64,000 nt of DNA from Candidatus Bathyarchaeia archaeon (GCA_050012255.1 JBEKHN010000013.1:1-64000), one strand, 5' to 3'. Positions 1 to 62,908 are shown, counted from the stretch's first letter. A program made the numbers and translations. The notes: generated from the sequence alone by a model not told the origin.

Positions 1-2
1 AG

Positions 3-2000: not shown

Positions 2001-2103
2001 CTCCTAATCAACTCTGAATGAAATCTTTAACTCTTAAGGCTGTTCATCGCGCGCGTATGAGATGCTTTCTAACTTTTCCTCTTTTTCAAAATGAGGGGAA
2101 AGC

Positions 2104-2424
2104 TTATGTCTCCGAGGACATCGTCCTTTCGTATCTCATCTGCCTCGAGCGTAGTTTGCTTTCTCTGTTTCTCTGTGCATGAGATGTTAGTTCTAGTAAT
2201 ATAGTCAAGATCGTCAGCACTAGCGAAGCCCAGAAGAGTGGACATCCGAGAAGAACAGCAAAGAAGGAATTCTTAATGGGATAGCAGAAGCAGAAAGTAT
2301 AGTCCACTGGACTCTGTGAACGCCATGTCAGATAGTTTGCAACGAACGTTATTATCCATAGAACGATCGTTGATAGTATTAGTGGAACGCGTATCTGGGC
2401 GTGTGCCTTATTGAATTCGGTCAT
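2104..2424 (-). CDS. Small two-TM membrane protein
   Basis: Two hydrophobic segments and a basic tail. Confidence 0.55.
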   Translation of the reverse strand: MTEFNKAHAQIRVPLILSTIVLWIITFVANYLTWRSQSPVDYTFCFCYPIKNSFFAVLLGCPLFWASLVLTILTILLELTSHAQRNRESKLRSRQMRYERTMSSET

Positions 2425-2517
2425 TCATCGCGCGACCGTCAAACCATTTTTACATCCTCGTCTGAAGGTGCTGACCCAACGTTAGTTTCAGGATGAGCGC
2501 GCGCTCCTTTAGTGGCT

Positions 2518-2646
2518 TTAACGTTTCTTGCCTTTGGCAGGAAGTTGCTGTCTCATCTGTTTCTTTTTCGCTTCTTTTTCCCGTTCTATCTTTTTCTGTT
2601 GTGCGATTTGAGTATTCTTTTGTTTACGTTTCATTACACTCGGCAT
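2518..2646 (-). CDS. Putative 42-aa Lys-rich small protein
   Basis: MPSVMKRKQKNTQIAQQKKIEREKEAKKKQMRQQLPAKGKKR*, translated by hand. Confidence 0.4.
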   Translation of the reverse strand: MPSVMKRKQKNTQIAQQKKIEREKEAKKKQMRQQLPAKGKKR

Positions 2647-2816
2647 AAATCTCAGCTACAAATTAACGATAAATAAGCAAGCTAAAACATATTTCTTTCG
2701 CATTAATGGAGGAAGCCAATAATATCCAAAGCTGACGCGTCTTTCTTTCATTTCATTGAAGAAGCCAACTTTGTGGTAAAAACAGAAAAAGAGTTTGCAA
2801 AGCTCTTTCTTGGGGC

Positions 2817-2909
2817 TTAAGAAATCTGTGTTTTGCTTTGCTTTTCCTTATGTTTCTTCCTTTTCTCGTCTCGCTCTTTCTTAGTTAACGGTTTGTCTTT
2901 TTTCGGCAT
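2817..2909 (-). CDS. Putative 30-aa Lys-rich small protein
   Basis: MPKKDKPLTKKERDEKRKKHKEKQSKTQIS*, with BRE/TATA-like CGAAAATTATTAAAG upstream. Confidence 0.4.
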   Translation of the reverse strand: MPKKDKPLTKKERDEKRKKHKEKQSKTQIS

Positions 2910-3022
2910 TTATGTTCCCAGAAGGTATGATATGCGTAATAGTGCTTTAATAATTTTCGAGCGCGCGCGTCGATCCACAAAACACTTTTAGACTGTAAGA
3001 TAAAGATGAGGATTAGACTATA

Positions 3023-3853
3023 ATGACACTTCATATTAACACGATAACACCAAACCATATTATTTCCGTTTCAGATAGACTTCTTTCAACATCCACTGGA
3101 TATATTGAAGACTCGACTGATAGATATAAGCATCTTATTCTGATAACCGATGATGCAAGGGTCATAGTAACCTTTTCAGGGTTTGCTGGAATTATCGGAA
3201 AAAACGGAGTGCTCGAAGAATCAACAATTGATTGGTTGACAACTGTAATCATGAATACAGGTCATGATGGTCATCACAGGTTGTGGGAAGACCATATTAA
3301 GGACATAAAAAATGATGCAGAGAAACGGATTGAAAAACTGCAATACATACACAAAATACCTCTAAGCAAATTGCAATTGGCAATATTTATTGCTGGAGAT
3401 TATAAAGGCGACCTTTTTGGTTTCATAATAGACAATAGTATAGAAAAAAATTGGACTTGGGCAAAAGTTGCTCGGACTTCATTTAGAACTGCATATAAAA
3501 ATTATAGTATGGAAAAGTTTGAAGATGGTTGTTATATAGCCTTCCTTGGGAATGAGAGACTTGCGATGAAACAAAGAGTGTTACTGCAGTTACTTAAGAG
3601 ATATGCTCGTAATGAGGATATAAAAAATATATTTCAAACATCTGTTAATATTATTAGGGCTGTTTCGGAAATGAGTGAGGGGTCTGTGGGTTGGAATTGT
3701 TCTGGTGTTAGAATAACAAGAAATAATCCTGGAATTGAAGCTTTTGATGATAGAGATACAAAAAAATATAGTATGGTTATGCCAAATTGTATTTCTTCTA
3801 CCTCCAAGTTTTCAGGTTGTGTGGGGAACATTAAAGGACGCAATTCAGATTAA
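3023..3853 (+). CDS. Ntn-hydrolase / proteasome-beta-like hypothetical protein
   Basis: After Met removal: Thr1, Asp17 (VSDR), Lys35 and a FSG motif; AT-rich gene. Confidence 0.6.
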   Translation: MTLHINTITPNHIISVSDRLLSTSTGYIEDSTDRYKHLILITDDARVIVTFSGFAGIIGKNGVLEESTIDWLTTVIMNTGHDGHHRLWEDHIKDIKNDAEKRIEKLQYIHKIPLSKLQLAIFIAGDYKGDLFGFIIDNSIEKNWTWAKVARTSFRTAYKNYSMEKFEDGCYIAFLGNERLAMKQRVLLQLLKRYARNEDIKNIFQTSVNIIRAVSEMSEGSVGWNCSGVRITRNNPGIEAFDDRDTKKYSMVMPNCISSTSKFSGCVGNIKGRNSD

Positions 3854-4010
3854 ACGATTAGCTTTTCTACCTGCTTAAAAATAGCGCGCGCGCTAGGAAA
3901 TGCAATCTGCTTTATGATCGTCAGAACACGTGTATGTTGAGTAAGGAAAGTAAATAAGGTAAAGTTTTGTATCAGTTAGAAGCCATCGATCGACTCGCGA
4001 TGGTGAAAAA

Positions 4011-5267
4011 ATGAAGTTGGCGGTTCTTGTTTGGGAATACCCTCCTATGATTGTTGGGGGATTAGGCACCTACGCTGCGGAGATTACTCGGAAGTTTGTT
4101 TTGGACGACAATGATGTGACCGTGTTTACGATGAATGATGACGCCGGTAGCTTGCCGACACGGGAGATTTGGCGCGGTATCGAGATTCACCGTCCGTTGC
4201 ACATTGACATTTCCGATTCTCTGCCTGACGTTGTTGCAGAAGACATAAGGAAGTGGGGAATGGGGAAAGGAATACAATTCTTCTCTAAAATTCTTGTCTA
4301 TAATTATTTGAGTGCGTCGAAGCTGGTTAATGAACTGATCAGGAAAGAAGATTTCAAGTATGACATAGTGGTCGCTCATGACTGGCTTTCTGCCATAGGA
4401 GGGATGACTGTGAAAAGGGAGGTTGGAATGCCATTCGCTTTTCATGTTCATTCAACCGAAAAGGGAAGAACTCTTGGGAACGGTTCGGTCACTAAAAGCA
4501 ACATTGAACTTCACGCCGCTCGAGTGGCCGACCTTATCGTGACAGTTTCTTATGCTATGAAGGATGAGTTGGTTGGACTTGGTTTTCCGAAGGAGAAAAT
4601 CCAGGTTTCCTATAACGGTGTCGACCCTGACAAGTACAATCCGAGCACGGTGACTCCTGATCAAGTCAAAAAGATCAGAGCTATGTATGACGTGAAGGAC
4701 GATGAGGAAATGATTCTTTTTATAGGTCGACTCGTCGGTGTGAAAGGTGTTGATAAACTGATTATGGCTTTGCCGCATATTTTGCAGAAGAATCCTAAGG
4801 CGAAGCTTGTTATCGTTGGTCTTGGCGACTTGCAGGAATACTTGATGAATCTGGTGAAAGCTACGAAGATGAGTGATTTCGTGAAGTTCAGGTTCGAATT
4901 CATTCCCGAGGAAGAACGTATTCTTCATTATGCTGCATGTGACGTTGCAGTTTTCCCAAGTTTCTATGAGCCCTTCGGAATAGTTGTTCTTGAAGCCATG
5001 GCGATGGAACGACCTGTTGTTGTTGGAGCTGCGGGTATAAGTGGGATGCGTGAAATCGTTGTCTGTTGCGGAGATGAGCAATGTGGTTATCACATAGATC
5101 CTAATAATCCGTCGGACATAGCATGGGGAATAAACAGCGTTTTGGAAAATGCTGACAAGAAAAAGTGGCTTGGAAAGAACGGTAGAAAGAGGGTTCTGAA
5201 CGAGTTTACTTGGGATAAGATCGCTGCAGAAACGTTGGGTTTGTACGAACAGATTCCTAAGTGCTAA
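4011..5267 (+). CDS. GT4 family glycosyltransferase (glycogen synthase-like)
   Basis: WEYPP..GGLG, HDW, GRL..KG and EPFGIVVLEAMA motifs. Confidence 0.92.
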   Translation: MKLAVLVWEYPPMIVGGLGTYAAEITRKFVLDDNDVTVFTMNDDAGSLPTREIWRGIEIHRPLHIDISDSLPDVVAEDIRKWGMGKGIQFFSKILVYNYLSASKLVNELIRKEDFKYDIVVAHDWLSAIGGMTVKREVGMPFAFHVHSTEKGRTLGNGSVTKSNIELHAARVADLIVTVSYAMKDELVGLGFPKEKIQVSYNGVDPDKYNPSTVTPDQVKKIRAMYDVKDDEEMILFIGRLVGVKGVDKLIMALPHILQKNPKAKLVIVGLGDLQEYLMNLVKATKMSDFVKFRFEFIPEEERILHYAACDVAVFPSFYEPFGIVVLEAMAMERPVVVGAAGISGMREIVVCCGDEQCGYHIDPNNPSDIAWGINSVLENADKKKWLGKNGRKRVLNEFTWDKIAAETLGLYEQIPKC

Positions 5268-5739
5268 GCTTGAGTTTTAGTCAGCCTCGGGGTTTTTCAT
5301 AAGACTTTGCCCCAACCAACTTCCATGGGCGATAGCAAAACGTTCAGCTAGTAATTCAGCTTGATATGTCTGGGATAAATTCGTTCAGGTCTTTAGCGCG
5401 CGCGCTTCACTTGAGCCTACAGGTTCTGTTCGCCTGTAGTTTGTCGTCAAATATCTCCTAGATCCTATTTCAACTTCTTGGATTGGACATCCTTTCTTCT
5501 GAAGGATGTTCCACCAGATTTTCTTCAGCTCTTCCTCATTCAAATAAAAGAGCACTCCTTCTGCCGCTGAACGCATAGTGGTAGAGAGTGACTTATATTA
5601 ATACTCGAACTTGTCGTGGAATGTTCCAAGCAGAAACGAAAGGTATTAGTCTTCGTGGCGAATCGTCTGGAACGTGCGAGTGAGCCGAAAGACTCACGAG
5701 CTGACTTTTTGTTGGATGAGCGCGAGCATGATGCGAGCT

Positions 5740-6810
5740 TCACTGTGGAGCTGGAAGTAGCGTAATGTAGCACGTGGATCTAACGAGTTCCGCGAGAATT
5801 TCGCTGTAGTGAGAGTAGAAATAGTTTGCCGTTGTTCCTCCTTCTAGATTGTGTGAAGAATAGTTGCGTATCATCAAGAGTATTCTTAAACACTTTTCTT
5901 GATCATTTTGACGAGTCAGCTCCAATGGTAGTTTCGTGTCAAGGTCACTCATTTGTGCTGCACTAGACGAGCTGACGTCAATCCCAGGAAACTTGGCTGC
6001 TATCAGACCTGCAAGTTTCCAACGTCTACTTCGAAGTTCCGTCTGAGACATTTTGCTCTTCAGAAGGTCTTCATTGAATAGACAGAAATCTTGGGTATAT
6101 GCAAGAAGGCGACCAGCTGTAAAACTATTCTCTTTATCCTTCCATATGTCCCAGTTTTGGAAGATTCTAGCAAATGTGCAATTAAAGAAGACTCTTTGAT
6201 CGTCGTTCAGTGAGTCTAGGAAAGTGGTTACGAACTGCTCAGGGTTTGGGACGACAGCAATTCCGAGCGTCGAAATTATTGTCTGGAGACGGGTCTTGAC
6301 GTAAAGAATTTCGAATTGAGTAAACAAATCTCGTCTTCTCAAATTGTACTCAGGGGTGTTTTCAGAATAGGGAGAGTCCTCAATCAGAGCCTTGAGAATG
6401 TTGGCGAAACCTTCGTCAAGTTTCATCTGTGCCGATTGTGCAACACCGAGGTTGGCGTAAATCATGCCCTTGTTAAAGGTAAAATTCTGAGTCTTTTCGA
6501 ATGCTTTCACTTGTGCCAGAAGAACATTATAGTACATTTCGTTGAGTGATGGATAAAATCTCCACATTGTAAGATACCAAAGATTGCTGGATGATCTCAC
6601 ATAGTAGTCTTTTTCGACATATGGATAAGGTGGTGTATGTCCGAGAGAACTGAATGGTGGCTTATGGTCAACATCCTTCCACTGGGTCATTCCATAGCTT
6701 AGTCTCCACTGTCCATATTGAAAGAGGAAGTTCATATCCGCCAGCAATTGTGAAGAGTTCTTGATGAAATCAGCTATTTCGTCGCTTTTTTCATGATATT
6801 TCTCGGCCAT
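5740..6810 (-). CDS. Hypothetical protein with TPR-like segment and C-terminal RxxxxH (HEPN-like) motif
   Basis: YANLGVAQ helical motif; RNYSSH near the C-terminus. Confidence 0.6.
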   Translation of the reverse strand: MAEKYHEKSDEIADFIKNSSQLLADMNFLFQYGQWRLSYGMTQWKDVDHKPPFSSLGHTPPYPYVEKDYYVRSSSNLWYLTMWRFYPSLNEMYYNVLLAQVKAFEKTQNFTFNKGMIYANLGVAQSAQMKLDEGFANILKALIEDSPYSENTPEYNLRRRDLFTQFEILYVKTRLQTIISTLGIAVVPNPEQFVTTFLDSLNDDQRVFFNCTFARIFQNWDIWKDKENSFTAGRLLAYTQDFCLFNEDLLKSKMSQTELRSRRWKLAGLIAAKFPGIDVSSSSAAQMSDLDTKLPLELTRQNDQEKCLRILLMIRNYSSHNLEGGTTANYFYSHYSEILAELVRSTCYITLLPAPQ

Positions 6811-6990
6811 CGTTTACACCCATAGAATCTAAATCACACTCGCTTGTTTTATGTAGCTATTGTCGCATTAATATTTCTTCAATTCAAGAAGTTTGAAACA
6901 CGATTGATCGTGAGAGTGCGAGTTCAATGCAAGCGCGACACTGATGACTTGAAGCGATTGATATGAAGGGTTGAAAGTAAGAAAGAAGGG

Positions 6991-7878
6991 TCATTTGCGT
7001 TTTCGGAACATCATTATGTTCTGTGGGGTTGTGCAGATGTACGTCCATCCGTTGTCTATTAGTTCGCCCGCTTCTTTTTCGTCTTTGGCTATTGCGTGGT
7101 GGTAGTTTTGGCTTTCTTCGTCGAATTCTACTACGTGGGTGTAAAGCATTGTGGAGTTTATGTTTCTGTGTCCGAGTTTTTCTTGTACGAGGGGTAGACT
7201 TTTCGTTTCTGTGAAAAGTTTTGTTGCGTAGTAGTGTCTGAAGGTGTGGAAGTGTATTTATTTGAGTCTTGGATTTTCTAGTTTTTTGGCTAGGGCTGTT
7301 TTTTGTCTGTCGAATGTCCAACGGATTCCACTTAGGTGGGTTTTGCCAAATAAGTATTCATTGGTTTTTGGTAGGGCGTTGAGTCTGCTAATGAGTTTGG
7401 CTGATATTCTTTGTTCTCTTGGTTTTCCGTGTTTTTCTGCTCGGCATTTGATAGTGCTTTTCTCTTCGTCTATGTCTGTCCATTTACATCTCCATAATTC
7501 ACCGATACGAAAGCCTGTTTCTTTGAGTGCTTGCAGTACGATGCTAACTTTTGTCGATGTTCCAGCTATCAAGGCATCAATTTCTTTTTCTGTTGGAACG
7601 AATGGCAAAGTTTCGTTTTTGTGGTATTTGGGTGGGGTCCATGAGATTCCTTTCATTTTACAGTATTCGAGATAGGCGTATGCGGCTATGCTCTTGTGTC
7701 CGTCGCTCCATTGTTTTCGATTGTGAATGAAAATAGCTACTTTTTCGGGATTCTCCAAATCTACGCCATGGTTAAGCATTGTTCGGAGGACTTTGAAACG
7801 TGTTCTGATGGTTTCTTCGGATAATGCAGTTTTCTGGCAATGGATAAGAAACTGGGTTAACATCCCATTCCTATCCAT
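6991..7878 (-). pseudogene. Tyrosine recombinase/integrase with internal TAA stop
   Basis: TGFRIGE, then in-frame TAA at 7258-7260 followed by IHFHTFRH..LGHRNINSTMLYTH..MFRKRK*; likely start is the ATG at 7878. Confidence 0.9.
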
Positions 7879-7903
7879 GCTAGACGGGGCGGGTTGTAGT
7901 GAA

Positions 7904-8222
7904 AAGCTGGCGTGTTGGTCGTAACCCGCCTTTTGTTCTAAGTGGCATTCGGCTAATCGGGCTACCCGCGCTTCCGGTAGACTCTTCATCAGCGTCTGCT
8001 TGCCCTTTCCACTTGCAGGACAGCCGTTTCACCGCTTCACACCCAGCATCCTCAACAACTTAACATGCATCACCGTCACCTGCTGAGCGGACGTTTCGTT
8101 TCTGCTCTGGAGCCAAGGTTCTCACCTTGCGTCCTTGCGGACGCTGCAACTCTACACGTGGGCGGAGTTTCCTCAAGCCTCTCACGTCGAGGCTCGAAAG
8201 CCACACACCAACTCGCCAGCCC
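7904..8222 (-). ncRNA. rnpB: Archaeal RNase P RNA
   Basis: Minus strand carries GAGGAAACTCCGCCC, AGAGCAGAAACG, TGAAACGGC, AGAACAAAAGGCGGGTTA; P1 formed by GCTGGCGAGTTGGT / ACCAACACGCCAGC; ends approximate. Confidence 0.92.
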
Positions 8223-8423
8223 AGTGTACACTGCGCGCTCGTGTGCAATAAGAATTTTGGAAACCACATCATCCTTACTTGGAAACGCACGTCCAGAATT
8301 CATTATCCCCAAGAAGAAGAGGACAGCCGCGCCTTGAACCGTCAAAGCTAACACTGTCCAACAGGGATCAACAGCGACGTCCACAACTTATTTAAGAATC
8401 AGTCAGCAACGGTCGATGGTCGA

Positions 8424-9785
8424 GTGCGACTAATCATGGAACGATGGAACCGAATAACGTTGTGTCTTCTTCTCATCAGCATGTTCACTCTAGCCTTGTG
8501 CATTCGGTCAGGCTTCGCCGCGTCAGGGTGGAGCCAAACCTACGGAGGATCAGGAGACGACGAGACCTATTCACTTGTTAAGACCAGCGACGGAGGCTAC
8601 GCGTTAGCGGGATACACAAACTCCAGCGGCGCCGGCAGCTACGACTTCTGGCTCGTCAAAACAGACTCTTCTGGAACGAAACAGTGGAACCAAACCTACG
8701 GGGGATCAAACGACGAAGGAGCCTTTTCGGTCATCCAGACCAACGACACGGGATACGCAGTAGCCGGGATCACAACTTCCTACGGTGCAGGCGAAACCGA
8801 CGCCTGGCTGGTCAAAACAGACTCTTCTGGAACCATGCAGTGGAGCCAAACCTACGGAGGATCAGGAGACGACGAGACCTATTCACTTGTTAAGACCAGC
8901 GACGGAGGCTACGCGTTAGCGGGATACACAAACTCCAGCGGCGCCGGCGGCGACGACTTCTGGCTGGTCAAGACCAACTCTTCGGGAAGCATGGTGTGGA
9001 ACCAGACGTATGGTGGGACAGGAGACGAACAGGCTTCCTCTGTTATCCAGACTAGCGACGGAGGCTACGCGTTAGCGGGGTACACGACCTCTTTCGGCGC
9101 CGGCGACTACGATTTCTGGTTGGTTAGAACCGACTCCTCGGGAAACATGCTGTGGAACCGAACCTACGGAAGCGCAGGGGACGATGAAGCAGAATGCGTG
9201 ATTCAGACCGGCGACGGCTACGCCTTAGCTGGGCTCACAAACTCTACTGGCGCAGGCGGCCTCGACTTCTGGTTGGTCAAAACCGACTCCAACGGAACGC
9301 CACAGTGGAACCGAACCTATGGAGGAGCAGGCGACGAAGCGGCAAACGCGTTATTACAAACAAGCGACACAGGCTACGCATTAGCAGGCTGGACGACCTC
9401 TTACGGCGCGGGCGGCTACGATTTCTGGCTTGTCAAAACCGACTCTTCTGGAACGATGCAGTGGAGCAAAACGTACGGGGGAGGAGGGGACGACGCGGCG
9501 TTCTCACTTGTTCTGACCAGCGATGGAGGCTACGCGTTAGCCGGTTTCACGGGTTCCTACGGCGCAGGAGACTATGATGGCTTCCTAGTTAAAACCGACT
9601 CCTCTGGAAACAGCGTCATGCCGCAGTCATCATCCTCCATCCCATATTTAGCCATCGTAATAGTCGCGATCATAGCGATCGTAGTGATAGTAGCAGTTGT
9701 CATAGTCCGCAGAAGGCGTCCGAAACCCGGCACGCCCACCGTCCAACAGGTATCGCCTGCAGATTCTGAAGTGAAACCGACTTGA
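8424..9785 (+). CDS. Membrane-anchored beta-propeller repeat surface protein
   Basis: Signal peptide, seven ~52-aa WxxTYGGxxDD..TSDGGYALAG..DFWLVKTDSSG repeats, C-terminal TM + RRRR. Confidence 0.88.
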   Translation: MRLIMERWNRITLCLLLISMFTLALCIRSGFAASGWSQTYGGSGDDETYSLVKTSDGGYALAGYTNSSGAGSYDFWLVKTDSSGTKQWNQTYGGSNDEGAFSVIQTNDTGYAVAGITTSYGAGETDAWLVKTDSSGTMQWSQTYGGSGDDETYSLVKTSDGGYALAGYTNSSGAGGDDFWLVKTNSSGSMVWNQTYGGTGDEQASSVIQTSDGGYALAGYTTSFGAGDYDFWLVRTDSSGNMLWNRTYGSAGDDEAECVIQTGDGYALAGLTNSTGAGGLDFWLVKTDSNGTPQWNRTYGGAGDEAANALLQTSDTGYALAGWTTSYGAGGYDFWLVKTDSSGTMQWSKTYGGGGDDAAFSLVLTSDGGYALAGFTGSYGAGDYDGFLVKTDSSGNSVMPQSSSSIPYLAIVIVAIIAIVVIVAVVIVRRRRPKPGTPTVQQVSPADSEVKPT

Positions 9786-9883
9786 GCATGTGCATGTACA
9801 TTTGCCTGCTTACCGATTTGAGTTGACGGGAAACATCTTATCTTTCCGAGGATGCAACTACTCTGCGAAGGAACCGCCTGATC

Positions 9884-10474
9884 ATGCCTAAACGTGTCAT
9901 GTTGCTGACCGGAACTCCCTGTGTCGGCAAAACCTCCGCAGCACGTCTGCTCACGGTCAAGCTCAACGCCTTATACGTCAACCTAACAGACCTGGCCGTG
10001 CGCAACAAACTTATCTCAGGAAAAGACGAGACGCGAAACACCATCATCGTTGACGAACCACGGATGAAAAAGAAAATCCGCAGCATCATCCAGAAAACAG
10101 ACAAGAAAGAAGTCGTCATCGACGGACACTACGCCGTCAACGTCGTTCCCAAGGAACTCGTGACCCGCGTCTTTGTTCTAAGGCGCGACCCCGTGGAACT
10201 GCGTGGACTCATGGAACACTGCGGATTCCAAGGTCGAAAGCTCTTCGAGAACCTGGCCTCCGAAGTGTTGGACGTCTGCTTGTTCGACGCTCTGAAAGCT
10301 GTTGGTGAGAGGAGAGTCTGCGAGTTAGATGTTACAGGCAAGAGTGTGGAGGAGACAGTCGAGCAGATTCTGTTTCTGCTACGCCATCCCAATGAATGTT
10401 GTGTGGGCGTGGTCGATTGGCTGGGCAAGCTTGAGAACGAAGGCTTGTTGGATGAATACGTGAAGCTTAATTGA
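9884..10474 (+). CDS. Adenylate kinase, archaeal Fap7/AK6-like
   Basis: GTPCVGKT P-loop and VIDGH motif. Confidence 0.88.
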   Translation: MPKRVMLLTGTPCVGKTSAARLLTVKLNALYVNLTDLAVRNKLISGKDETRNTIIVDEPRMKKKIRSIIQKTDKKEVVIDGHYAVNVVPKELVTRVFVLRRDPVELRGLMEHCGFQGRKLFENLASEVLDVCLFDALKAVGERRVCELDVTGKSVEETVEQILFLLRHPNECCVGVVDWLGKLENEGLLDEYVKLN

Positions 10475-10841
10475 CCATGTGTCTGAGGGTTATCTGCTGC
10501 TTCGTCAGCAGCGTAATCTTTCTTCTGTTCGCGTAAGACTTCGCGTGACCGCTGAACTTTCCACCTATGATTATCGGGCTCGAAAGTCCCACGTCTGAGG
10601 AGGCCTTGTCAATGTTAATTATGATGTTCACGCCTATGGTTCTGTTCCAGTCCCTTATCCAGACGCCTTGCGCCACTTGTCCCTTCTGAACTATGAGGTC
10701 GAACTTCTGCGAGATCCCGCTGAAACCCTCGAGCGATGTCTCGTCCTGCTCTATCTTGTAACCATCCTTCTTAAAATAACGTATCACATGCTGAAGCAGG
10801 TTCGGCTCCAGCTTCGGCCTGCTCTCTGCCTCACTGCTCAC
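10467..10841 (-). CDS. Restriction endonuclease-like (Mrr_cat fold) small protein
   Basis: GFSG...FDLIV and FSGHAKSYA..RKITLL patterns; catalytic ExK not evident. Confidence 0.6.
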   Translation of the reverse strand: MSSEAESRPKLEPNLLQHVIRYFKKDGYKIEQDETSLEGFSGISQKFDLIVQKGQVAQGVWIRDWNRTIGVNIIINIDKASSDVGLSSPIIIGGKFSGHAKSYANRRKITLLTKQQITLRHMVN

Positions 10842-10902
10842 CCGCTGTTCCCCCTCTTACGCATAGCGTTATCTAGCGCGACGTGGAAAAGGCTTTCGAT
10901 CA

Positions 10903-11109
10903 GTGGAACACATGGCATCGACCCTCGTAATCGTCTGCCCCAGATGCGGCGGTCTCCTGCTGGCGAAGACTGAAACGAAAACCAGAACCTGCCCCTACTG
11001 CGGTCACACGGTCGCCGTGCAGAAGGCAAGAAAGCTCGCTTCAGCGAAGAGTGCAAGCGAAGCATCAGCGATCCTGCGCAAAATGAAGAGCGAAGCAGCC
11101 AACAGATAA
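10903..11109 (+). CDS. Small zinc-ribbon protein (DUF1922-like)
   Basis: CPRCG...CPYCG. Confidence 0.75.
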   Translation: MEHMASTLVIVCPRCGGLLLAKTETKTRTCPYCGHTVAVQKARKLASAKSASEASAILRKMKSEAANR

Positions 11110-11284
11110 GCCGCCAGACCCGCAAAACCCTCGCGAAGCCAGGCCTCGCAAGCTAGACCTCAACGTTCTGGCACGTCGATGACATCAAGGATGTCGAGTC
11201 AACAGCGCCATGATGGCGAGGGCAACTTTTCAGACAGTTATCTCCACCAGCTCTCTTTTTCGCTTAAGCTGGTCAAGCTCCTCA

Positions 11285-11488
11285 GCGCGCTAGCATGTTC
11301 CTGAATTCTTTTGGGAAGCGGCTTGTGCCGCTCATTCTGCTCTTCAACCATATTTGGCTCATATAGCATACCCGAGGGGGAGGGTGTGAGCACGCAAGCA
11401 CCAAGCTGAACCCTGACAGTAACCATAGAGAAACATCATGCCTTTCCTCTTGAGCGGAATCTAGGAATTTAGGAACAAGCATGCGCGC
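11285..11488. mobile_element. MITE-like element type C, copy 1 (204 bp)
   Basis: Inverted ends GCGCGCTAGCATGTTCCTGAATTC / GAATTTAGGAACAAGCATGCGCGC; interior alignable to 58295-58494. Confidence 0.75.
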
Positions 11489-11546
11489 TATGCTAATAAG
11501 ACATGTTTCCCGATGTTGTGTTGGAAGTCACCTTTCTTGCTAGTGG

Positions 11547-12440
11547 TCAGTTGTCCTTCAGTTTCTTGCGCAGGATCTTTCTGACGTTTTCGACGCGAAA
11601 GCCCAAGCTTCGCAGCAGAGCGATGGAAGACACGTTTTTTTCCGAGGTTCCCAGCCGGACAGTGTTCATTCCTTTTTCGAACAGAAGGTTCATGGCTCGA
11701 GCCGTGAGCGCCGATGCGAGATGCTTGTTTCTGAACGCGGGAAGAGTGGTTGCGGGCCCCAGATAGCCCATTCTGCAGTGCAGATATTTGTTGTAGTCTG
11801 TGTCTGGTTTCGCCACGACCACTGAGACGATTTTTCCAGCGGCTTCGGCGACCTGAACCCATTCCTCGTCGAACGGCGGGTCCTCAGCCTTCCACCTTTC
11901 AAGGTCTCCCAGTTCGAGCCTCTCCCATCCGAACCCCGCATTAACGGTCTCAACGAACTCGGCTTCCTCGCCGGGCCTCAAGGTTCTGAGCGTTATTGCC
12001 TCATCAACTTCGGGAACACGCGTCGGGCCGCGAAGCTCCACCGTCATGCGCTGAAACCCCGGTTCCAGCACGTAGCCTCGACTCTCCCACTCCTTAATTT
12101 CAGGGTTCCTTTCATCTATCATCCTCATGAGCGAGTCGCCCTCCGCGTTCCTCTCAGCCTCGCTCACAAGCATGTCCCTAACGACCTTGCCTTCCGGGGC
12201 TTTGCGAGTGGCGAGCCAGTGAACGTCCTCTCCCCTGTCATCTGCATGGGTTCCGATGAAGCCGACCACGCTTTCATCGTCTTCGGCCACCAGAACTCTG
12301 ATACGGCGCCTCTGAATCTCCGAGACAAATGTCTCCTCGTCAAAAGGGATAAACTCCGGAGAGCCTTCGTACTCCTCGTTCATCAGCTCCGCTAGGAACG
12401 GCAAATGCTTCCGGTCGAGGCTTGAAATCTTGACGGTCAT
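11547..12440 (-). CDS. Tandem GNAT acetyltransferase
   Basis: Two GNAT-like halves; TLPAFRNKHLASAL and N..SIALLRSLGF motifs. Confidence 0.85.
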   Translation of the reverse strand: MTVKISSLDRKHLPFLAELMNEEYEGSPEFIPFDEETFVSEIQRRRIRVLVAEDDESVVGFIGTHADDRGEDVHWLATRKAPEGKVVRDMLVSEAERNAEGDSLMRMIDERNPEIKEWESRGYVLEPGFQRMTVELRGPTRVPEVDEAITLRTLRPGEEAEFVETVNAGFGWERLELGDLERWKAEDPPFDEEWVQVAEAAGKIVSVVVAKPDTDYNKYLHCRMGYLGPATTLPAFRNKHLASALTARAMNLLFEKGMNTVRLGTSEKNVSSIALLRSLGFRVENVRKILRKKLKDN

Positions 12441-12582
12441 GTTCGCGTCAAGCAGAGTTGAAAGAACCTATAAACCTTTAGCCGGTGCGAGGACGCTCAA
12501 CGTGCGCTATTGCCGAGGCCCTGCAGCAACGCTTATTATTCTCGCTCTACGACATTCTTAGGTCAAAAATGAAGGTGAAAGA

Positions 12583-12984
12583 ATGGACCACACAGTCGTT
12601 CATTTCGAAATTCCCGCAAACGACACCGAGAAGATGAAGAAGTTCTATTCAGGAGTCTTCGGATGGAAAATCGAGAAAGGCAGCGAAGAGATGAGCGACG
12701 GCATGGAATATTGGCTTCTGGGAACCGTACCAGTGGACAAGCAGATGAGACCATTGCGACCAGGAATCAACGGAGGCCTCTACAAGAAAACGAAAGAAAC
12801 AAAAGACATGAAGCCCGTCATCTACATCCAAGTCGAGTCCGCCGACGATTACATCGAGAAAATCAAGAAGCTCGGCGGAAAAATCATCGTCCCAAAACAA
12901 GAAGTCCCACAGGTAGGCTGGACCGCAATAGCCGTGGACCCTGAAGGAAACCAATTCGCCATAATGCAACCGATGCACTCATAA
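12583..12984 (+). CDS. VOC/glyoxalase family protein
   Basis: VVHFEIPA, FYSGVFGW, DPEGNQFAI. Confidence 0.9.
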   Translation: MDHTVVHFEIPANDTEKMKKFYSGVFGWKIEKGSEEMSDGMEYWLLGTVPVDKQMRPLRPGINGGLYKKTKETKDMKPVIYIQVESADDYIEKIKKLGGKIIVPKQEVPQVGWTAIAVDPEGNQFAIMQPMHS

Positions 12985-12989
12985 CCGCA

Positions 12990-13006
12990 CTTTTTTTCTT
13001 TTTTTT
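12990..13006 (+). terminator. Poly-T archaeal terminator-like tract
   Basis: Long T tract a few nt after the VOC stop codon. Confidence 0.5.
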
Positions 13007-13167
13007 ACGAGAGCGAACTCACCTTCACATGCATCGTTGCTCAGATCACGGAATTTAAGAAGAATTGCCATAGAGCGGGCGCTGAGCATTAACGACTCTC
13101 AACGACAGCAAGCCATCAGCAAACCGATAGAGATAAACTGCTTAAAAAAAAGAGAACAATGAGTATA

Positions 13168-13355
13168 GCGCGCGCCATTAAAAGTTACTACCCTTGTCGA
13201 GACTCTGCGCTAAGGGCTCAGCACGCGCTCGGCCTCAAGCCCGCACAAATCCACTAGGGCCTTCTCCAACGCCTACGTGCAGTACTAACACCCTAGGGGG
13301 GAGGGGGAGGGTGGAATAGAAGGGGAAAAACGCGAATACAGGGATGTAGCGTTTC
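13168..13355 (+). repeat. Dispersed non-coding repeat B, copy 1
   Basis: Reverse-complement homologue at 23114-23298; starts at GCGCGCGC; contains GGGGGGAGGGGGAGGGTGG. Confidence 0.85.
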
Positions 13356-16592: not shown

Positions 16593-16856
16593 ATTAAACT
16601 CAGCCAATTTTGTCATGGTGAACGCTTTCTGTCAAATCATAATTGGATCACATATTGAACCGTGTAGGGCACCCGCACGCACATTCACAACCGTAGGACC
16701 TAGATGGCCCCAGTATGTGTTCCCAAGCTTCCCTTTTTCAGCCGCAAGAGGGTCAGTGCGCGTGTAAACAACGCTTCGCAAGCCCAGAGCACCTAACATC
16801 CATAGGCGAAGCTGACCAGAAGCGCAACCCACCTCGCAGAAAAGATTAGGAGACAA

Positions 16857-17051
16857 GCGCGCTGCCTTCTCCCTTTATTGTGCGTTCGCACTTGAACTGC
16901 CCACTCGGCTCAGCATCCGACCTGAACAGCCTCACCGTTTTCAAGGATGCTCGTTAACTGTATATGTAAAGTGTATATGCAAAGTGTATATGCAAATTGT
17001 ATATGCTTTTAAATTCGTGTTTTTTGCGAATTTAGGGACAAGCCAGCGCGC
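16857..17051. repeat. GCGCGC-bounded element A, copy 1, with four 13-bp tandem units
   Basis: (AAAGTGTATATGC)x~4 at ~16958-17006; right end GAATTTAGGGACAAGCCAGCGCGC resembles the C/D termini. Confidence 0.8.
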
Positions 17052-17190
17052 TAACTGTTCTTCTTGTGAAAGCGGAAATTATAAATCAGTAATGAAATAA
17101 TAGAGTGTAATCACTTCAGTATTTGACTCATCTCTGTATAAGGGGGGTAGGATTACGAGCACTCACGCAGAAGACTTAAAACTTCGCCTA

Positions 17191-22994: not shown

Positions 22995-23097
22995 GCCCGC
23001 TGGCTGGTCGTTAAATTCGCAAAAAGCGCATAATTAAAAGCATATACATTTTGCATATACACTTTGCATATACACTTGACGAGCATTGTTGAAAACG
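22995..23097. repeat. Element A, copy 2 (inverted relative to copy 1), three 13-bp units
   Basis: GCCCGCTGGCTGGTCGTTAAATTCGC...(TTGCATATACACT)n matches the reverse complement of ~16936-17051. Confidence 0.8.
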
Positions 23098-23113
23098 CTG
23101 TTCTTCTAGATGG

Positions 23114-23298
23114 GAAACGCTACATCCCTGTATTCGCGTTTTCACCTCGTCTATTCCACCCTCCCCCTCCCCCCTAGGGTACTAGTACTGCACATAGGCG
23201 CTCGTGAAGGCCCTAGTGGCTAAGCGCGGGTCCGAGGCCAAGTGTGTGCTGAAGGCTTCACAGGGAGTCTGCGCAAGGGTCGTAACTTTTCAATGCGC
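23114..23298 (-). repeat. Dispersed repeat B, copy 2
   Basis: GAAACGCTACATCCCTGTATTCGCGTTTT...CTATTCCACCCTCCCCCTCCCCCCTAGGGT is the reverse complement of copy 1. Confidence 0.85.
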
Positions 23299-36143: not shown

Positions 36144-36150
36144 CAGCGCG

Positions 36151-39543: not shown

Positions 39544-39632
39544 GTGCGACGCGTGCGACTCGCTTTTGAGACCTGAAAACCCGACCGGGTCGGTGGAAAA
39601 CGAGGTCTGAAACCGAGTCGTACGCGTCGTGC
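39544..39632 (+). other. Long imperfect hairpin
   Basis: 39544-39562 pairs with 39614-39632 (three G-T wobbles); inner AGACCT/AGGTCT and CCGAC/GTCGG. Confidence 0.7.
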
Positions 39633-39643
39633 ACGATGTTGGC

Positions 39644-40216: not shown

Positions 40217-40261
40217 TACCTTTCTCCCCTAACTTTTCTTCGATCCAGTCTTTGTAGTCTA

Positions 40262-40445
40262 GCGCGCATGGTTGTTCCGAAATTGGCCTAAAATGGTTTT
40301 TATTCGCCATTTATCATTTAAGGGCATTTTTGGAATCCATATCTGTTCTTGATTTCTTTGGACATCTATCTTTATCGAACCCGGCAGAAACGTGCAACCA
40401 CGAATTTTGACCATTTTTGACCATTTTAGGAACACGCATGCGCGC
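40262..40445. mobile_element. MITE-like element type D, copy 1 (184 bp, TA flanks)
   Basis: GCGCGCATGGTTGTTCCGAAAT / ATTTTAGGAACACGCATGCGCGC; colinear with 48772-48955. Confidence 0.82.
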
Positions 40446-40527
40446 TAATCTCCTCTTCCTTGAAAGTGTACTTGAAATTCATAACGGAATTAAGGGCAAG
40501 TTGCACTAATGCATGTTGTGAAAGAGC

Positions 40528-48678: not shown

Positions 48679-48771
48679 CTGGTCGCCTTTGAAGGCGGCG
48701 AGTACCATACAGCAACCGCTGAAAGCCTCAAGGAAGATGAAGAAGTACTCAAAGCTGGGTTTGAGTTTGTA
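48679..48771 (+). pseudogene. Integrase C-terminal tail fragment
   Basis: LVAFEGGEYHTATAESLKEDEEVLKAGFEFV resembles VEFDEESQNYHHAIAKDEKEAGELIDNGWTYI of the 6991-7878 integrase; cut at GCGCGC. Confidence 0.6.
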
Positions 48772-48955
48772 GCGCGCATGCTTGTTCCGAAATTGGCCTA
48801 AAATGGTTTTTATTCGGGTTTCATGGTTTAGGCAGGGTTTTGGGCTCCCTATCTGTCCTTGATCGTCATAGGTACTTGTTTTCCTCGAGAGCGGCAGAAA
48901 CGTGCAAAATGGAATTATGATCATTCTTGACCATTTTAGGAACACGCATGCGCGC
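48772..48955. mobile_element. MITE-like element type D, copy 2 (184 bp, TA flanks)
   Basis: Same length and termini as 40262-40445, diverged middle. Confidence 0.82.
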
Positions 48956-49216
48956 TATATATGAGCTCGGAATGAATCTGAACGAGTCCATAGTCTCTTC
49001 AACGAGAAGTTGCACTTCTTCAACCTATTTTCCGTATAGGAATCTGACCTGTCCCTCTTCAACGAGGATCTGGGGATAGGGGAAAATGAGCTGTGCACTG
49101 CAAGTGCAGCATCTGTAGCGAGTGTAGCGGACATCTAGCAATACTCAAACTTGATAGACTTGACCCGAGTCAAGTCATGCTGCTGGTATCCCACGTGGCA
49201 TAATCGCACGCGATGT

Positions 49217-50398: not shown

Positions 50399-51158
50399 GT
50401 TTTTCCCTCAATAACTAATCTTGCTACCGCATTCTGCTGCATACGAATATAAAGCTTTTCACATTGATGATTCTTCCAAGTTTTTTCTTCGAGAACTCCG
50501 CACGCCTATGCCACGCGACGATCCCGTGACGCTAGTCTACGCGGTCGCTTCCGCATGAACACAAACTCGACTGCGACTTACAAACGGTTGGTCATTTGAA
50601 ATGGATACTCCCCCATGTCAGACTCACCAAGAACATGGAGGAAGATAAGAAACTAACCGAAGTTGGCCCTGGGTACCTTTCCGAAAGGACCAGCCAAAAG
50701 ACCCAATAAACGGAAACAGACTGGGGGTTTCCATAAGAGGCCGGCGTTTGGTTGTAACTTCACCTGAAGTGGAGACGTCTCCCGATAAGCCGAACAACGT
50801 TGATATAACATCAGTGTCCAAAATTTATGAGAGTGAAAAAGAAGCGCGCGCTTGATGGACGCAGGGATTAATGCGGCGCTTGTATCCTGCTGCTTTACCA
50901 GTGACTACAAAGGTCTAGTGGAAGTGCCACGACGTAGAAAAATTACCGCCAGCGTATCTAATCATAAGCATATTATTAGTCGGAGGCATAATCTGTTCCA
51001 CGTTCTTGACTAGCGAAACCTATGCTCAAGGAAACGAGATAATAATCGTTGGCGCCGATTACAACTCGACAAGCACTATTGAAACACCAGACATCAACAT
51101 CACTATCCCTGCGAGAATATTTATTGAATATGCTGATTATGCTTCTGTCGACGCGCGC

Positions 51159-56001: not shown

Positions 56002-56522
56002 TCAAGGCTGGTTTCCGATACTTCCCAAGAGAGTGGCTAGGCTCTTCAAGGTCAAAGGGCGATAGTGAACCTCATCATCCAGACTGATCAGGAACCCATC
56101 CATGTCAGATATTTCCAAGAAGGGGTATTCTCTGAGTTTTTTCTTGTGATTTGCGTAATCAGAATAGTCTCTGCAGTACGCAGCGATAACCCCGTCGTCT
56201 CCTAAGTCTATCCCCCTCTCAAGCATGACTACTCCAAAACTGCTCTTTGCTAGGTCGAGCTGCGCCCTTTTCCTCGCCTTTTCCACTTCTTCAGGAGCGA
56301 GAGTTCTCCTGAGTTTGACGAAGGTTAAGCCTAGCAAGTGATAACCGATCTCTCGGAAATCGTGAATTATGGTGTATTCTTTGATGACACCTTCTTTTTC
56401 AGTCTTGACCTGAGCCTGGTCACCGTTGGCTGAGAGACTCCGAGCACCTTTGATAGCTCTCTGTCGCTTCTGCGACTGTTCTTCATAAGCTCGGAAACAA
56501 GCTTCAACTCGATTTCTTTCAT
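56002..56522 (-). pseudogene. Lrp/AsnC regulator, frameshifted
   Basis: MKEIELKLVSELMKNSRRSDRELSKVLGVSQPTVTRLRSRL from 56522 shifts frame near 56400 into EKEGVIKEYTII. Confidence 0.85.
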
Positions 56523-56775
56523 GTTTGCTTCCCATGTTACTTAGCCTCGAATGAGCGAATAACACTTTTGGGGAAACTCCACTGCGCGCGCTATAACTTG
56601 CGCAATGCTGCGGCCCTCATCAATTTTGACCTTGGAACAAGAGATTCACCGCTCGACGCCCAAATAATGGTTGAATGATGCTTCATTAGTAGAGAGCCTC
56701 GAGAATAGCAAGAGGCTCGAAGAGCTCGCTACTTTTATTTGGGTCGAGCCATTTACCAATAACATGTGATCTGCA

Positions 56776-58228: not shown

Positions 58229-58294
58229 CACCCTAGACTAGCGCAGTGGGGCTGCACGTCTCCATACCTAGTAGGGTTCAAGTTCGCTTCTTCC

Positions 58295-58494
58295 GCGCGC
58301 TAGTGCGTTCCCAAATTCTGCTGAAAAGCAGCTTGCGCTACTCATTTGCTCTTCAATTATATTTGGGTCATATAGCACACCCGAGGGGGAGGGTGTGAGC
58401 AAGCAAGCACCGAGCCGAACCGTGACAGTGATCATTGATCACCAGAAAACGTCACGTCTGCCTCTTGAACGGAATTGAGGAACACGCATACGGC
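58295..58494. mobile_element. MITE-like element type C, copy 2 (decayed right end)
   Basis: Colinear with 11285-11488, e.g. CATATAGCA.ACCCGAGGGGGAGGGTGTGAGCA. Confidence 0.75.
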
Positions 58495-60614: not shown

Positions 60615-60729
60615 CGCATATCCTTCTTTGGAGTGCCCGTTAATATCGTTAATATTAATATTTAATAAAGATTGCTGTTTAGGCGTGCAACAAAAATACA
60701 CAAACTCAACTTTGCCATCTCCTTCGAAG

Positions 60730-60803
60730 AGCCTCGGCCGGGCTTTGAACCCGGGGCCTGCGGTTTACGAGACCGCCGCTCTACCGAGCTGAGCTACCGA
60801 GGC
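60730..60803 (-). tRNA. tRNA-Thr(CGT)
   Basis: GCCTCGG/CCGAGGC acceptor, GCGGT-CTCGTAA-ACCGC, GGTTCAAAGCC. Confidence 0.94.
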
Positions 60804-60859
60804 ATGTGTCGCTTAGTAGTGAGGGGAACCCTTATTTTTAAGATGTTCGGAAATAGCCC

Positions 60860-61660
60860 TTGGACGCTGGGTCTATGGAAAATTTAAGCATGCTGGATAG
60901 AATTCTGGAAAGAACATCGATCAGGAGTTTCGAGAAAGACAAGAAAATCCCAGAGGAATGCGTGAAGAAGATACTTCTTGCTGGAATCAGAGCTCCCTCG
61001 GCCGGAAACATCCAGCCGAGAACCATAATAGTTGTGAAAGATGAAGTTGTAAGAGAGCAGTTGTATCAGCTTTGCGAAGGCCAGGCGTTCATGAAAGCCG
61101 CCCCTCTTTGGATCGTGATGTGTGTTGACCTCCACCGTCACCTAAGGGCTGCAGAGCTCACGGGTGTAAAGTATGATTACACGGGCGTTCTTCCTTACAC
61201 TTTGGGCGTTTTGGACGCCTCGTTGTCGCTTGAAAACATGGTCATAGCTGCTGAAGCCTTAGGGTTGGGAAGTGTGATGATTGGATCAGTCATTGAACAC
61301 CCAGAGGAAGCAAGAGAGATCCTGAAATTGCCCGAACATTGCCTGGCCTTCTGTATCCTGTGCGTTGGATACCCGAAGAGAAAATTCGGAACGAGAGAGA
61401 AATGGGACTACAGAGTGATAGTCTGCGAAGACCATTACAGGGATATTGACGCGACGGACGTTGCAGAGTACTGGAAGAAGTTTATGCTCAATGATTTGAA
61501 GCGTGGAGGGAAGGAAATCTCCCCCGAAATCATCGAAAGAATCTGCAACGAGAGAAATTATGGAAAGACTTACGCAAGTCACTACAAAGAAGAATTTGTC
61601 AGCGCTACGAACAGGAAGCTGACGGAGTTTCTCAAGAAGCAAGGACTACTCAAGGACTGA
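60860..61660 (+). CDS. Nitroreductase family protein
   Basis: RTSIRSF, APSAGNIQP, AEALGLGS, VGYP. Confidence 0.92.
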   Translation: MDAGSMENLSMLDRILERTSIRSFEKDKKIPEECVKKILLAGIRAPSAGNIQPRTIIVVKDEVVREQLYQLCEGQAFMKAAPLWIVMCVDLHRHLRAAELTGVKYDYTGVLPYTLGVLDASLSLENMVIAAEALGLGSVMIGSVIEHPEEAREILKLPEHCLAFCILCVGYPKRKFGTREKWDYRVIVCEDHYRDIDATDVAEYWKKFMLNDLKRGGKEISPEIIERICNERNYGKTYASHYKEEFVSATNRKLTEFLKKQGLLKD

Positions 61661-61681
61661 GTACCATTATGGTGGTTCTCA

Positions 61682-62671
61682 TTGGCAAGCGCTGAAGAGC
61701 TAGGAGAGCGGAGGATAATCGAGATCATACAAAGCCGCTTAGACCAGATGCCCAAAATGCCTGTGCCTTTCGGCGATGACGTATCCGCCTGCGAAATTGG
61801 AGGCGGCAACCTCGTCGTTTTGAAGACAGACATGCTTGTGGACAAGACCGATGTTCCTAAGGGCATGAATCTCTGGCAGGCAGCTCGAAAAGCCGTGGTT
61901 ATGAACGTCAGCGATTTCGCAGCGAAAGGTGTTAAGCCGATCGCTATGCTCGTTTCCCTTGGCATACCGAGAAGTCTGAGAGAGAGTGACGTCGAAGAAT
62001 TGGGGGCTGGTTTGAACGCTGGGGCACGTGAATACGGCGCATACGTGATCGGTGGAGACACGAGCGAGGCTTCAGACCTCGTGATCAGTCTTTCAGTTTT
62101 TGGGATGACGAGAAAGGGCAAACTAATGTTGCGGAGTGGAGCAAAACCCGGAGACCTCTTGGCCGTGACTGGTCCTTTTGGAAAGCCGCCTGCAGGCTTG
62201 AAGATCCTTGTCGACAATCTCAATGCGTCAAAAGAAATCAAGAAGACTCTTGTGGAGTCTGTTTTGATGCCGCATGCTCGGCTTGACGAGGGACTTGCCC
62301 TTAGTCAGACAGGAGCCGTCAGCGCGGCCATCGATTCAAGCGACGGCTTGGCCTGGAGTCTACATGAGATCGCGAGAGCAAGCAAAGTTGGAATATCGGT
62401 AAGCTCGTTGCCTGTAGCAAAGGAAGCGGCGAGGTTCGCAAGGATCAACAAGCTTGACCCTTCGGCGCTGGCGCTGTACGGAGGAGAAGAGTATGAGCTT
62501 ATCTTGACCGTTAAGCCCAGGCTGTGGGTTAAGGCTGAAAAGGCCGCTGAAAAAGTAGGTGGAAAACTCGTGAAAATTGGAAAAATAACGGCTGGGAAGA
62601 ATGTGCTAATGGAGACGCGTAGAAACCACGTTGTAATTCGGCCGAAAGGGTATGAACACTTCAAAACATGA
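61682..62671 (+). CDS. thiL: Thiamine-monophosphate kinase
   Basis: GDD, NVSDFAAKG, GGDT, DSSDGL, GGEEYEL. Confidence 0.95.
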   Translation: MASAEELGERRIIEIIQSRLDQMPKMPVPFGDDVSACEIGGGNLVVLKTDMLVDKTDVPKGMNLWQAARKAVVMNVSDFAAKGVKPIAMLVSLGIPRSLRESDVEELGAGLNAGAREYGAYVIGGDTSEASDLVISLSVFGMTRKGKLMLRSGAKPGDLLAVTGPFGKPPAGLKILVDNLNASKEIKKTLVESVLMPHARLDEGLALSQTGAVSAAIDSSDGLAWSLHEIARASKVGISVSSLPVAKEAARFARINKLDPSALALYGGEEYELILTVKPRLWVKAEKAAEKVGGKLVKIGKITAGKNVLMETRRNHVVIRPKGYEHFKT

Positions 62672-62908
62672 GTGCCGTTTTTTATTTTCTTAGCCTCTTA
62701 GCGCGCGGAGGTTGCTAAGAAACTCATAAGCGATATTGTTCAGCCAAAAGGTTCCGATCCCACAGTACAGATCTCTCCGTTCTTTTCTTGAAAAACCTCT
62801 GCCGCACGTTGAGTTTCCTGTGTTCTGAGAGAAAACTTATATGAGGGGGATTTTGGTTGTATTTCATTCTCGTGCCTGAGCTCAGAATTTTGGGCGATAA
62901 TTCAATCT

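Follow-up and report, generated by a model that had tools for sequence, protein, structure and literature searches.

When a Tc1/mariner element is excised, a short palindrome flanked by TA-like bases stays behind at the site it occupied; such footprints are not known to occur genome-wide in prokaryotes. The additions known from Ku-LigD junctions are short and of no defined sequence. According to a review (PMC8656161), the LigD polymerase domain has terminal transferase activity and fills gaps, among other functions. The cyanobacterial palindrome HIP1 (GCGATCGC), as described in PMC5861425, is 15-300-fold over-represented and periodic, is found inside open reading frames (ORFs) as well as in the spaces separating them, and is conserved by selection. 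HIP1 is also described as recognised by methyltransferases. The GC clusters of yeast mitochondria measure tens of nucleotides (nt; for example 42 nt), are associated with putative target duplications and are treated as mobile in PMC4478555. The subject of this analysis are runs of alternating GC, among which the octamer GCGCGCGC stands out, scattered in a 64,000-nt stretch of DNA from a Candidatus Bathyarchaeia archaeon (G000:C13:1-64000; the window hereafter). The unit A(GC)4T, sometimes with (GC)3 or (GC)5 at its core, is best explained, with a probability of about 45%, as a neutral scar, peculiar to this Bathyarchaeia genus, that illegitimate joining of DNA leaves behind. Joints of lost, gained or swapped DNA often carry a self-complementary filler of ~6-10 nt of alternating GC and, judged from sequence comparison, the fillers decay as neutral sequence does.

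The source genome, G000, is the 2.35-Mb assembly (38 contigs, 48% G+C) of a peat archaeon. Two genomes, G001 (one contig, 2,346,764 bases) and G007, are closely related to it, with ~92-93% identity in syntenic DNA. The genus set includes 11 searched genomes, G000 among them, and 30 genomes come from outside the genus, for a total of 41. The G000/G001 comparison yielded 272 non-redundant alignments spanning 1.08 Mb, and 77 clean indels, defined by at most 25 nt in one genome and at least 100 nt in the other.

The 25 GC runs listed in an initial annotation of the window, 12 of 8-10 nt and 13 of 6-7 nt, are all in place (25/25). Alternating-GC runs of at least 6 nt number 36 in the window; the 11 that had not been listed are all 6-mers, and 9/11 fall in gene calls of conserved genes. 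The window has 12 copies of GCGCGCGC, whereas 100 dinucleotide-preserving shuffles lead one to expect 0.71 and never exceed 4. Genome-wide, 434 copies are found in G000 for 25-31 expected under Markov models of orders 1-3, a ~17-fold excess that makes it by far the most over-represented octamer (z-score 80 against the order-2 model). A count against a Markov background had been proposed by the initial annotation; (GC)4 proves strongly enriched, and the observation is stronger than that annotation stated.

Chance, base composition or assembly artefact is scarcely credible as a source of the runs. The genomes are metagenome-assembled, and G000 contigs often end in miniature inverted-repeat transposable elements (MITEs), as an artefact might produce; against this, the shuffles never attain the observed 12 copies, the z-score is high, the motif is present in a single-contig genome, and the same scar is found in independent assemblies. 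As an independent-sample check, contigs from four runs were aligned to the window. Some span the GC runs at 29792 and 34581 and show a (GC)3 variant at 34664; one variant contig joins 34156 to 34605 via 24 nt beginning with G-GCGCGCGC, and another features the empty allele of a 4.8-kb insertion at 35633. Since contigs from other samples confirm both the runs and the alternative alleles, misassembly is not the cause.

Maximal GC runs of lengths 6 to 12 number 517, 171, 201, 123, 63, 2 and 2 in G000. The second mode, at 8-10 nt, is unique to GC, other alternating dinucleotides having none, and the GC run is a discrete unit of 8-10 nt. The unit begins with G, as 176 runs are GCGCGCGC and 25 are CGCGCGCG. 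Among the 393 runs of at least 8 nt, the preceding base is A in 245 and the following base is T in 222; beyond 2 nt on each side the flanks appear random. A longer repeat hidden around solo runs is rejected because of these random flanks, and because families of flanks are found mainly beside 6-nt runs. Enrichment of GCGC through biased mismatch repair is likewise rejected, because the tetramer is not enriched (8306 observed, 8053 expected).

Runs of at least 8 nt are mostly non-coding (352/393, with 41/393 inside gene calls), though the genome is 76% coding. The 12 runs of this size in the window are all non-coding by crude gene calls, in agreement with the initial annotation, which had seen none in a long housekeeping gene. 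Run density is 0.56-0.76 per kb in every type of spacer, whether upstream, downstream, convergent or divergent, and 67 spacers carry two or more runs. A role as promoter or terminator is rejected, as the runs show neither preference for a spacer type nor constant distance to gene ends. Within alignable DNA, 14/33 GCGCGCGC words are identical in G001, to be compared with 53.5% of random non-coding 8-mers; identity being no better than that of random words, the excess is maintained by production and not by conservation.

The ~17-fold excess, the palindromic structure and the mostly intergenic location could all suit an element selected in the manner of HIP1, such as a site bound by a protein, a Z-DNA or nucleoid element, or a signal for transcription. 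Neither the lack of spacer preference nor the poor identity with G001 fits selection, the motif is absent from most sister genera, and it is found at deletion joints, including joints in former gene space; a selected function is very unlikely.

The motif excess is genus-wide. All 11 genus genomes carry GCGCGCGC in numbers, from 29 to 464 copies each; in the family's and order's other genera, counts of 0-30 prevail. Exceptions outside the genus are G024, with 227 copies and 209 of a control word, and G030, with 53 and 26, respectively; Ku is missing in both.

The association of the runs with joints is best seen in the clean indels. The short allele contains a GC run of at least 6 nt in 25/77 and of at least 8 nt in 18/77; the corresponding score is 0-1 for the five other alternating dinucleotides, and averages 1.7 for random non-coding windows (maximum 7 in 2000 trials). 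Runs of at least 8 nt are located within 10 nt of an alignment end in 33/393 cases (7.6 expected), and 71/535 alignment ends have a run of at least 6 nt within the same distance. Alignment of close relatives had been suggested by the initial annotation as a check on indel breakpoints, and the fillers are enriched there well over the 1.7 due to chance. Both ends of the long allele are free of GC runs in 19/25 scar-bearing indels; hence these deletions did not arise between two pre-existing sites. Long and short alleles are, for example, 3289 nt and GCGCGC, 1121 nt and GCGCGC, 2565 nt and TAGCGCGCGCG, 1405 nt and TGCGCGCGAGC. Between the same flanks, the region G000:C3:87710-90276 and its counterparts show three different alleles: that of G000 is 2565 nt long, G001 has TAGCGCGCGCG, and G007 has an unrelated sequence of 11 nt, TCTTCCCCCAT.

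Distant genus members retain a collinear long allele in matching surroundings at C8:12774, C2:161957, C12:15367 and C23:1859, and the GC-filled allele of these four loci is therefore a derived deletion. The deletion of G007 at C12:14507 overlaps but is not the same, and has no filler, which implies, from the sequences compared, a long ancestral allele. The C2:161957 scar is common to the independent assemblies of G001 and G007, with one base different. The C8 deletions of G001 and G007 share the right boundary and have left boundaries ~104 nt apart, which suggests that a second break may have occurred at an existing scar. New GCGCGCGC insertions arise de novo, at places where no run was present earlier. 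G000 has a pure +8 insertion of GCGCGCGC missing in both G001 and G007; G001 has (GC)5 in place of GGACG, retained in some form by five other genomes; and several patches of 8-12 nt have been replaced by a GC run. De novo fillers accompany losses ranging from 0-12 nt up to several kb.

The initial annotation held that the runs mark junctions of accessory DNA, a view borne out by the indels as well as by the window itself. Of the 12 window runs of at least 8 nt, six (2497, 2961, 3884, 13168, 29792, 56584) are within 4 nt of the edge of a block aligned with G001, five (2048, 34581, 34664, 35803, 50844) are inside window-specific segments, and one (5396) is conserved. The features concerned are the following:

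2048-2055: CGCGCGCG, between ORFs 672-2000 and 2104-2424 (both minus strand), within the island 298-7901; no counterpart in the compared part of G001.
2497-2504: (GC)4, left edge of block 2503-2960, 97.6% identical with G001.
2961-2969: 9-nt GC run, right edge of block 2503-2960; G001 continues with unrelated sequence and has no run there.
2970-3883, plus strand: window-specific segment with ORF 3023-3853 and a GC run on each side; G001 has a different 2081 nt.
3884-3893: (GC)5, in both G000 and G001, left edge of shared block 3880-5701 (98.7%); the leftward sequence differs.
5396-5405: (GC)5, downstream of a GT4 glycosyltransferase gene; the only window run of at least 8 nt within a conserved block, identical in G001.
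11283-11490: MITE of ~208 nt, bounded on either side by GCGCGC, its terminal inverted repeats (TIRs) being of IS5 type; ~20 similar copies in G001.
13168-13175: (GC)4, located where synteny breaks and where a ~180-nt repeat (13172-13352) starts.
16855-17053: MITE-like element of the 13-nt-repeat family, GCGCGC at both ends (16857/17046); G001 and G007 retain only the last ~20 nt.
29792-29800: 9-nt run immediately following the stop of ORF 28604-29791; the G001 run has an insertion of 3001 nt directly beside it, and the G007 copy is decayed (CGCGGCCGT).
34581-34671: two (GC)4 around 13-nt tandem repeats, in a 614-nt window-specific stretch adjoining tRNA-Gly; the G001 counterpart is ~10 kb, beginning with CGCGCGC.
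35634-40446: 4813-nt insertion, absent from G001, G007 and one contig of run X5; it contains the GC run 35803-35810, a ~190-nt repeat (36146-36344) and an SBP_bac_5/dockerin gene, and its final part is the MITE 40260-40447.
48770-48957: MITE of 188 nt, with 46-nt TIRs beginning with TAGCGCGC; the GC runs 48772 and 48950 are its ends.
50844-51158: (GC)4 at 50844 and 7-nt run at 51152, inside the window-specific segment 48611-51384.
56584-56591: (GC)4; G001 has 231 nt there, including a (GC)5, and G007 lacks the entire 56011-56666.
58294-58300: 7-nt run, left end of a MITE, retained in G001; edge of an alignment block in G007.
62701-62707: 7-nt run, located in a small inverted repeat's loop; both G001 and G007 have a GC-poor sequence there, shorter by 4 nt.

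The bracketing of a single gene by the runs at 2961 and 3884, noted earlier, is real, as the blocks shared with G001 stop at 2960 and restart at 3880, at the runs. The 'Ntn' label given to that gene and the 'zinc-finger' label of a small ORF near 36100 could not be confirmed; a Pfam search returned no family for ORF 3023-3853. As for the two positions where frames had been said to break, 48772 is the end of a MITE and 51152 falls in the window-specific segment 48611-51384. Pfam gave no family for ORFs 5740-6810, 31383-31949 and 56002-56565 either.

Repeated DNA of other types is found close to several of these runs. The spacer 34158-34857 beside tRNA-Gly (34779-34857) is a hot spot, being ~10 kb in G001 and G007 versus 614 nt in the window. 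The 13-nt tandem repeats (TTTGCATATACAC), located at 23040-23108, 34595-34676 and 16966-17006, belong to a ~175-nt MITE-like family with GCGCGC ends, of which G000 has about a dozen copies. The ~180-nt family (13172-13352 and, in reverse, 23140-23298) has more than 15 copies in G001, and the synteny break separating window positions 1-13352 from the remainder falls in one such repeat. The ~190-nt repeat 36146-36344 begins at GCGCGC, overlaps the 3' end of the SBP_bac_5/dockerin ORF 36151-38943, and recurs over 10 times in G000, with further copies in the genus. At 35856-36153 lies a module of ~300 nt that is also repeated elsewhere. ORF 8424-9785 contains 156-nt tandem repeats (8588-9664), and 1330 nt of this region (8409-9738) are missing in G001.

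A probable integrated island extends from 256 to 7943, with a 42-nt direct repeat on each side (256-297 and 7902-7943; 83% alike), of which the right-hand copy is at the 3' end of the archaeal RNase P RNA gene (7910-8216, minus strand). The G+C content of the island is low, 38-45%, and NosD-like and GT4 glycosyltransferase genes are carried by it, along with a tyrosine-integrase pseudogene interrupted by one internal TAA.

The initial annotation regarded GCGCGC as a crossover core through which fragments are gained, lost or joined, possibly driven by local tyrosine recombinases or by a GCGCGC-specific nuclease or methylase. In more general terms, (GC)n could be the recognition or crossover site of a dedicated recombinase, or of a nuclease cutting at the runs, that moves cassettes. 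Segments bounded by runs, such as 2970-3883, fit this scheme, as do runs that two genomes share while one side differs (3884 in the window, and C6:56174), the reuse of the C8 site, the entry of a 1750-nt element into a pre-existing (GC)4, and an insertion at C19:4135 where G001 has (GC)4. A crossover core is not supported: 19/25 long alleles are devoid of runs at their ends, and runs arise where none stood. The only tyrosine recombinase of the window is the pseudogene 7132-7590, and its island is bounded by its own 42-nt attachment repeats, not by GC runs. No candidate enzyme was found. A C5 methyltransferase specific for GCGC or GCGCGC as the driver of the motif is rejected as well, enzymes of this class (PF00145, the only one tried) being found in 2/11 genus genomes, G000 and G007, and not following the motif. 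A dedicated site-specific system is, on balance, improbable.

MITEs ~190-210 nt long terminate in the 6-nt runs at 11285/11483, 40262/40440 and 48772/48950; the inverted repeats of 40260-40447 and 48770-48957 measure 46-47 nt. These MITEs derive from a 1080-bp element of the IS5 family of insertion sequences (IS), located at G001:C1:389080-390159 and found also in G003:C204 and G009:C18, with GCGCGC at or next to both ends. DUF772 (E 7.6e-11) and DDE_Tnp_1 (E 5.2e-15) domains are encoded in two frames of the G001 copy, with the signature Y-2-R-3-E-6-K. This copy is frameshifted, G003 has an open frame of 341 aa and G009 one of 329 aa, and the G000 copies are all interrupted by stop codons (C24:15324-15896).

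The main rival of the scar interpretation stems from these elements. The runs may be footprints or solo ends of cut-and-paste elements with GCGCGC termini, IS5-family IS and MITEs, whose excision or internal deletion would leave TA(GC)3-5TA; deletions would follow if the two ends of an element inserted at distant places, or through adjacent deletion mediated by an IS, with excision afterwards. A parent IS with both transposase domains does exist. The end pattern GCGCGC + TGTYCC..AAAT has 55 matches in G000, and clustering of run flanks in this genome reveals one family of 83, of which 67 are beside 6-nt runs. TA(GC)3-MITE-(GC)3TA in G000 and TA(GC)4TA in G001 and G010 look like filled and empty alleles, some segments are swapped for a MITE in the other genome (C9:49979, for example), and a palindromic scar of fixed size with A/T flanks would be expected from two identical element ends.

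Other data are at odds with footprints. The end pattern is found in 6/11 genus genomes (in addition to G000, 26 matches in G001, 16 in G003, 11 in G007, 3 in G006, 1 in G009), with no match in the rest of the 41 searched, and its counts do not track GCGCGCGC: G009 has one match and 359 copies, G008 none and 254, G004 none and 128. The transposase query has no match in G004, G008, G002, G005 and G010. In 400-kb samples, 4/324 run flanks cluster in G008 and 0/164 in G004, revealing almost no repeat family at the runs, and the run-length profile and the A..T flanks are unchanged. Perfect 8-mers decay at neutral rate, and old footprints should therefore have vanished. Long alleles, as said, mostly lack end runs, and one element entered a (GC)4 that already existed: this is a 1750-nt TIR-bounded element of G001, at a site which is empty and has (GC)4 in both G000 and G007. 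No ORF long enough for a transposase was noticed in it (the longest are 284, 118 and 107 aa) in a reading by eye only. At C22:25996, a MITE has entered, in G000, a site without GC run in G001, G007, G010 and G003; 3 nt are replaced, and there is no target duplication. The only duplications seen are confined to the GC run, 4 nt at C3:43055 and 6-7 nt at C2:86887. The motif is independent of the IS5/MITE families, as of every repeat family now present, and an origin of the runs as footprints is considered rather unlikely.

A candidate machinery for illegitimate joining is encoded at G000:C10:11503-14557, where Ku, LigD polymerase (Prim-Pol) and ligase-phosphoesterase genes form an operon followed by a DUF72 gene. 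Ku is found in 8/11 and Prim-Pol in 9/11 genus genomes, those without being among the less complete (63-89%). The Prim-Pol match is divided over two frames in G001 and G004. Outside the genus the operon is present in 2/30 genomes only, G016 and G040, with the same gene order; G012 has one weak, sub-threshold Prim-Pol match. No gene family co-occurring with the motif was found among the families tried. A reverse transcriptase as templated source of the GC repeat is rejected, PF00078 being found in 0/41 genomes searched.

If the runs are scars of illegitimate joining, both ends of a double-strand break would be processed alike, giving a palindromic joint, and joining would be carried out by Ku, LigD polymerase and ligase-phosphoesterase along with a putative genus-specific factor. 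Existing GC sites would be reused: they would break again, and would take insertions, including IS5-family IS and MITE copies flanked by (GC)3 on each side. A more specific version is possible, if doubtful. In it, the genus would seal double-strand breaks in a manner not yet described: both break ends would receive the same short, sequence-defined tail or adaptor (~AGCGC each) and be joined head to head, every illegitimate joint (of a deletion, an insertion or a gene swap) being stamped with the palindromic GCGCGCGC, and the stamp would in turn re-break and attract mobile elements. End joining is a plausible setting; it does not by itself account for the filler.

Several results tell against the scar interpretation. 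G016 and G040 carry the end-joining operon, yet have 7 and 1 GCGCGCGC, respectively; operon presence does not predict the motif, the operon cannot suffice, and the link between the two is a correlation among related genomes only. A literature search retrieved no report of an end-joining polymerase adding alternating GC; supplementary files aside, it retrieved no description of this motif either, nor of MITEs in Bathyarchaeia. The length of 8 nt and the A/T flanks could come from a fixed sequence, for instance transposon ends, no less readily than from tailing by a polymerase. Polarisation was attempted at 10 indel loci, and distant genus members show deletion at 4 only; C5:2889, C5:12605, C3:87710 and C6:52178 are left without direction. 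At C19:4135 the flanks are 20-97 nt apart in four distant genomes, G001 has (GC)4 and G000 has 2.6 kb, so that the G000 segment is an insertion and the long allele is the derived one. No GC run of at least 6 nt is found in the short allele or at the ends of the long allele in 42/77 clean indels, several short alleles of which resemble decayed runs. Lastly, the G000/G001 alignment covered G001 from its start up to 1.68 Mb, out of 2.35 Mb, and gene calls were crude (1909 genes in G000).

If the runs are indeed joining scars, they constitute a readable record of illegitimate recombination, from which deletions, insertions and gene swaps could be counted and dated from sequence, in uncultured archaea globally common in soil and peat. 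An end-joining chemistry whose filler has a defined sequence would then also be indicated; such an activity would interest the DNA repair field and might find use as a tool, and to our knowledge no such chemistry is known in any domain of life.

Among known systems, Ku-LigD end joining is similar in two respects: the genus has genes for Ku, the polymerase domain and a ligase with phosphoesterase, and at the joints losses are small, nucleotides are added and the target is not duplicated. It differs in the fixed filler of ~8 nt of alternating GC, which is not described in the literature searched. IS5-family IS and MITEs are alike for the DDE transposase of IS4/IS5 type, the TIRs and the many copies, features that pertain to the flanked elements and not to the solo motif; unlike them, every copy here is GCGCGC-flanked, and the solo motif outnumbers the elements and is present in genomes without them. 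In contrast to Tc1/mariner footprints, the motif is found also where no matching element was detected. In contrast to integron-like cassette systems, the core site is absent from both ends of the long allele in 19/25 cases, and no dedicated recombinase was found beside the motif or, among the families tried, co-occurring with it. Yeast mitochondrial GC clusters are also GC-rich palindromes, scattered in intergenic DNA and undergoing fast turnover, according to PMC4478555; the unit described here is only 8-10 nt long, has random flanks and replaces deleted DNA. HIP1, to which the runs had been likened in the initial annotation, is similarly an 8-bp GC-rich palindrome, hyper-abundant in one lineage. 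The analogy holds for abundance and fails for placement, as 90% of the runs are non-coding and the motif sits at indel joints, and for conservation, which is no better than that of random 8-mers; a matching pattern of C5 methyltransferases is also missing. The motif thus provides a contrast case to HIP1, a hyper-abundant palindrome apparently sustained by continual neutral production and not by selection, and bears on the long-standing question of why such palindromes exist.

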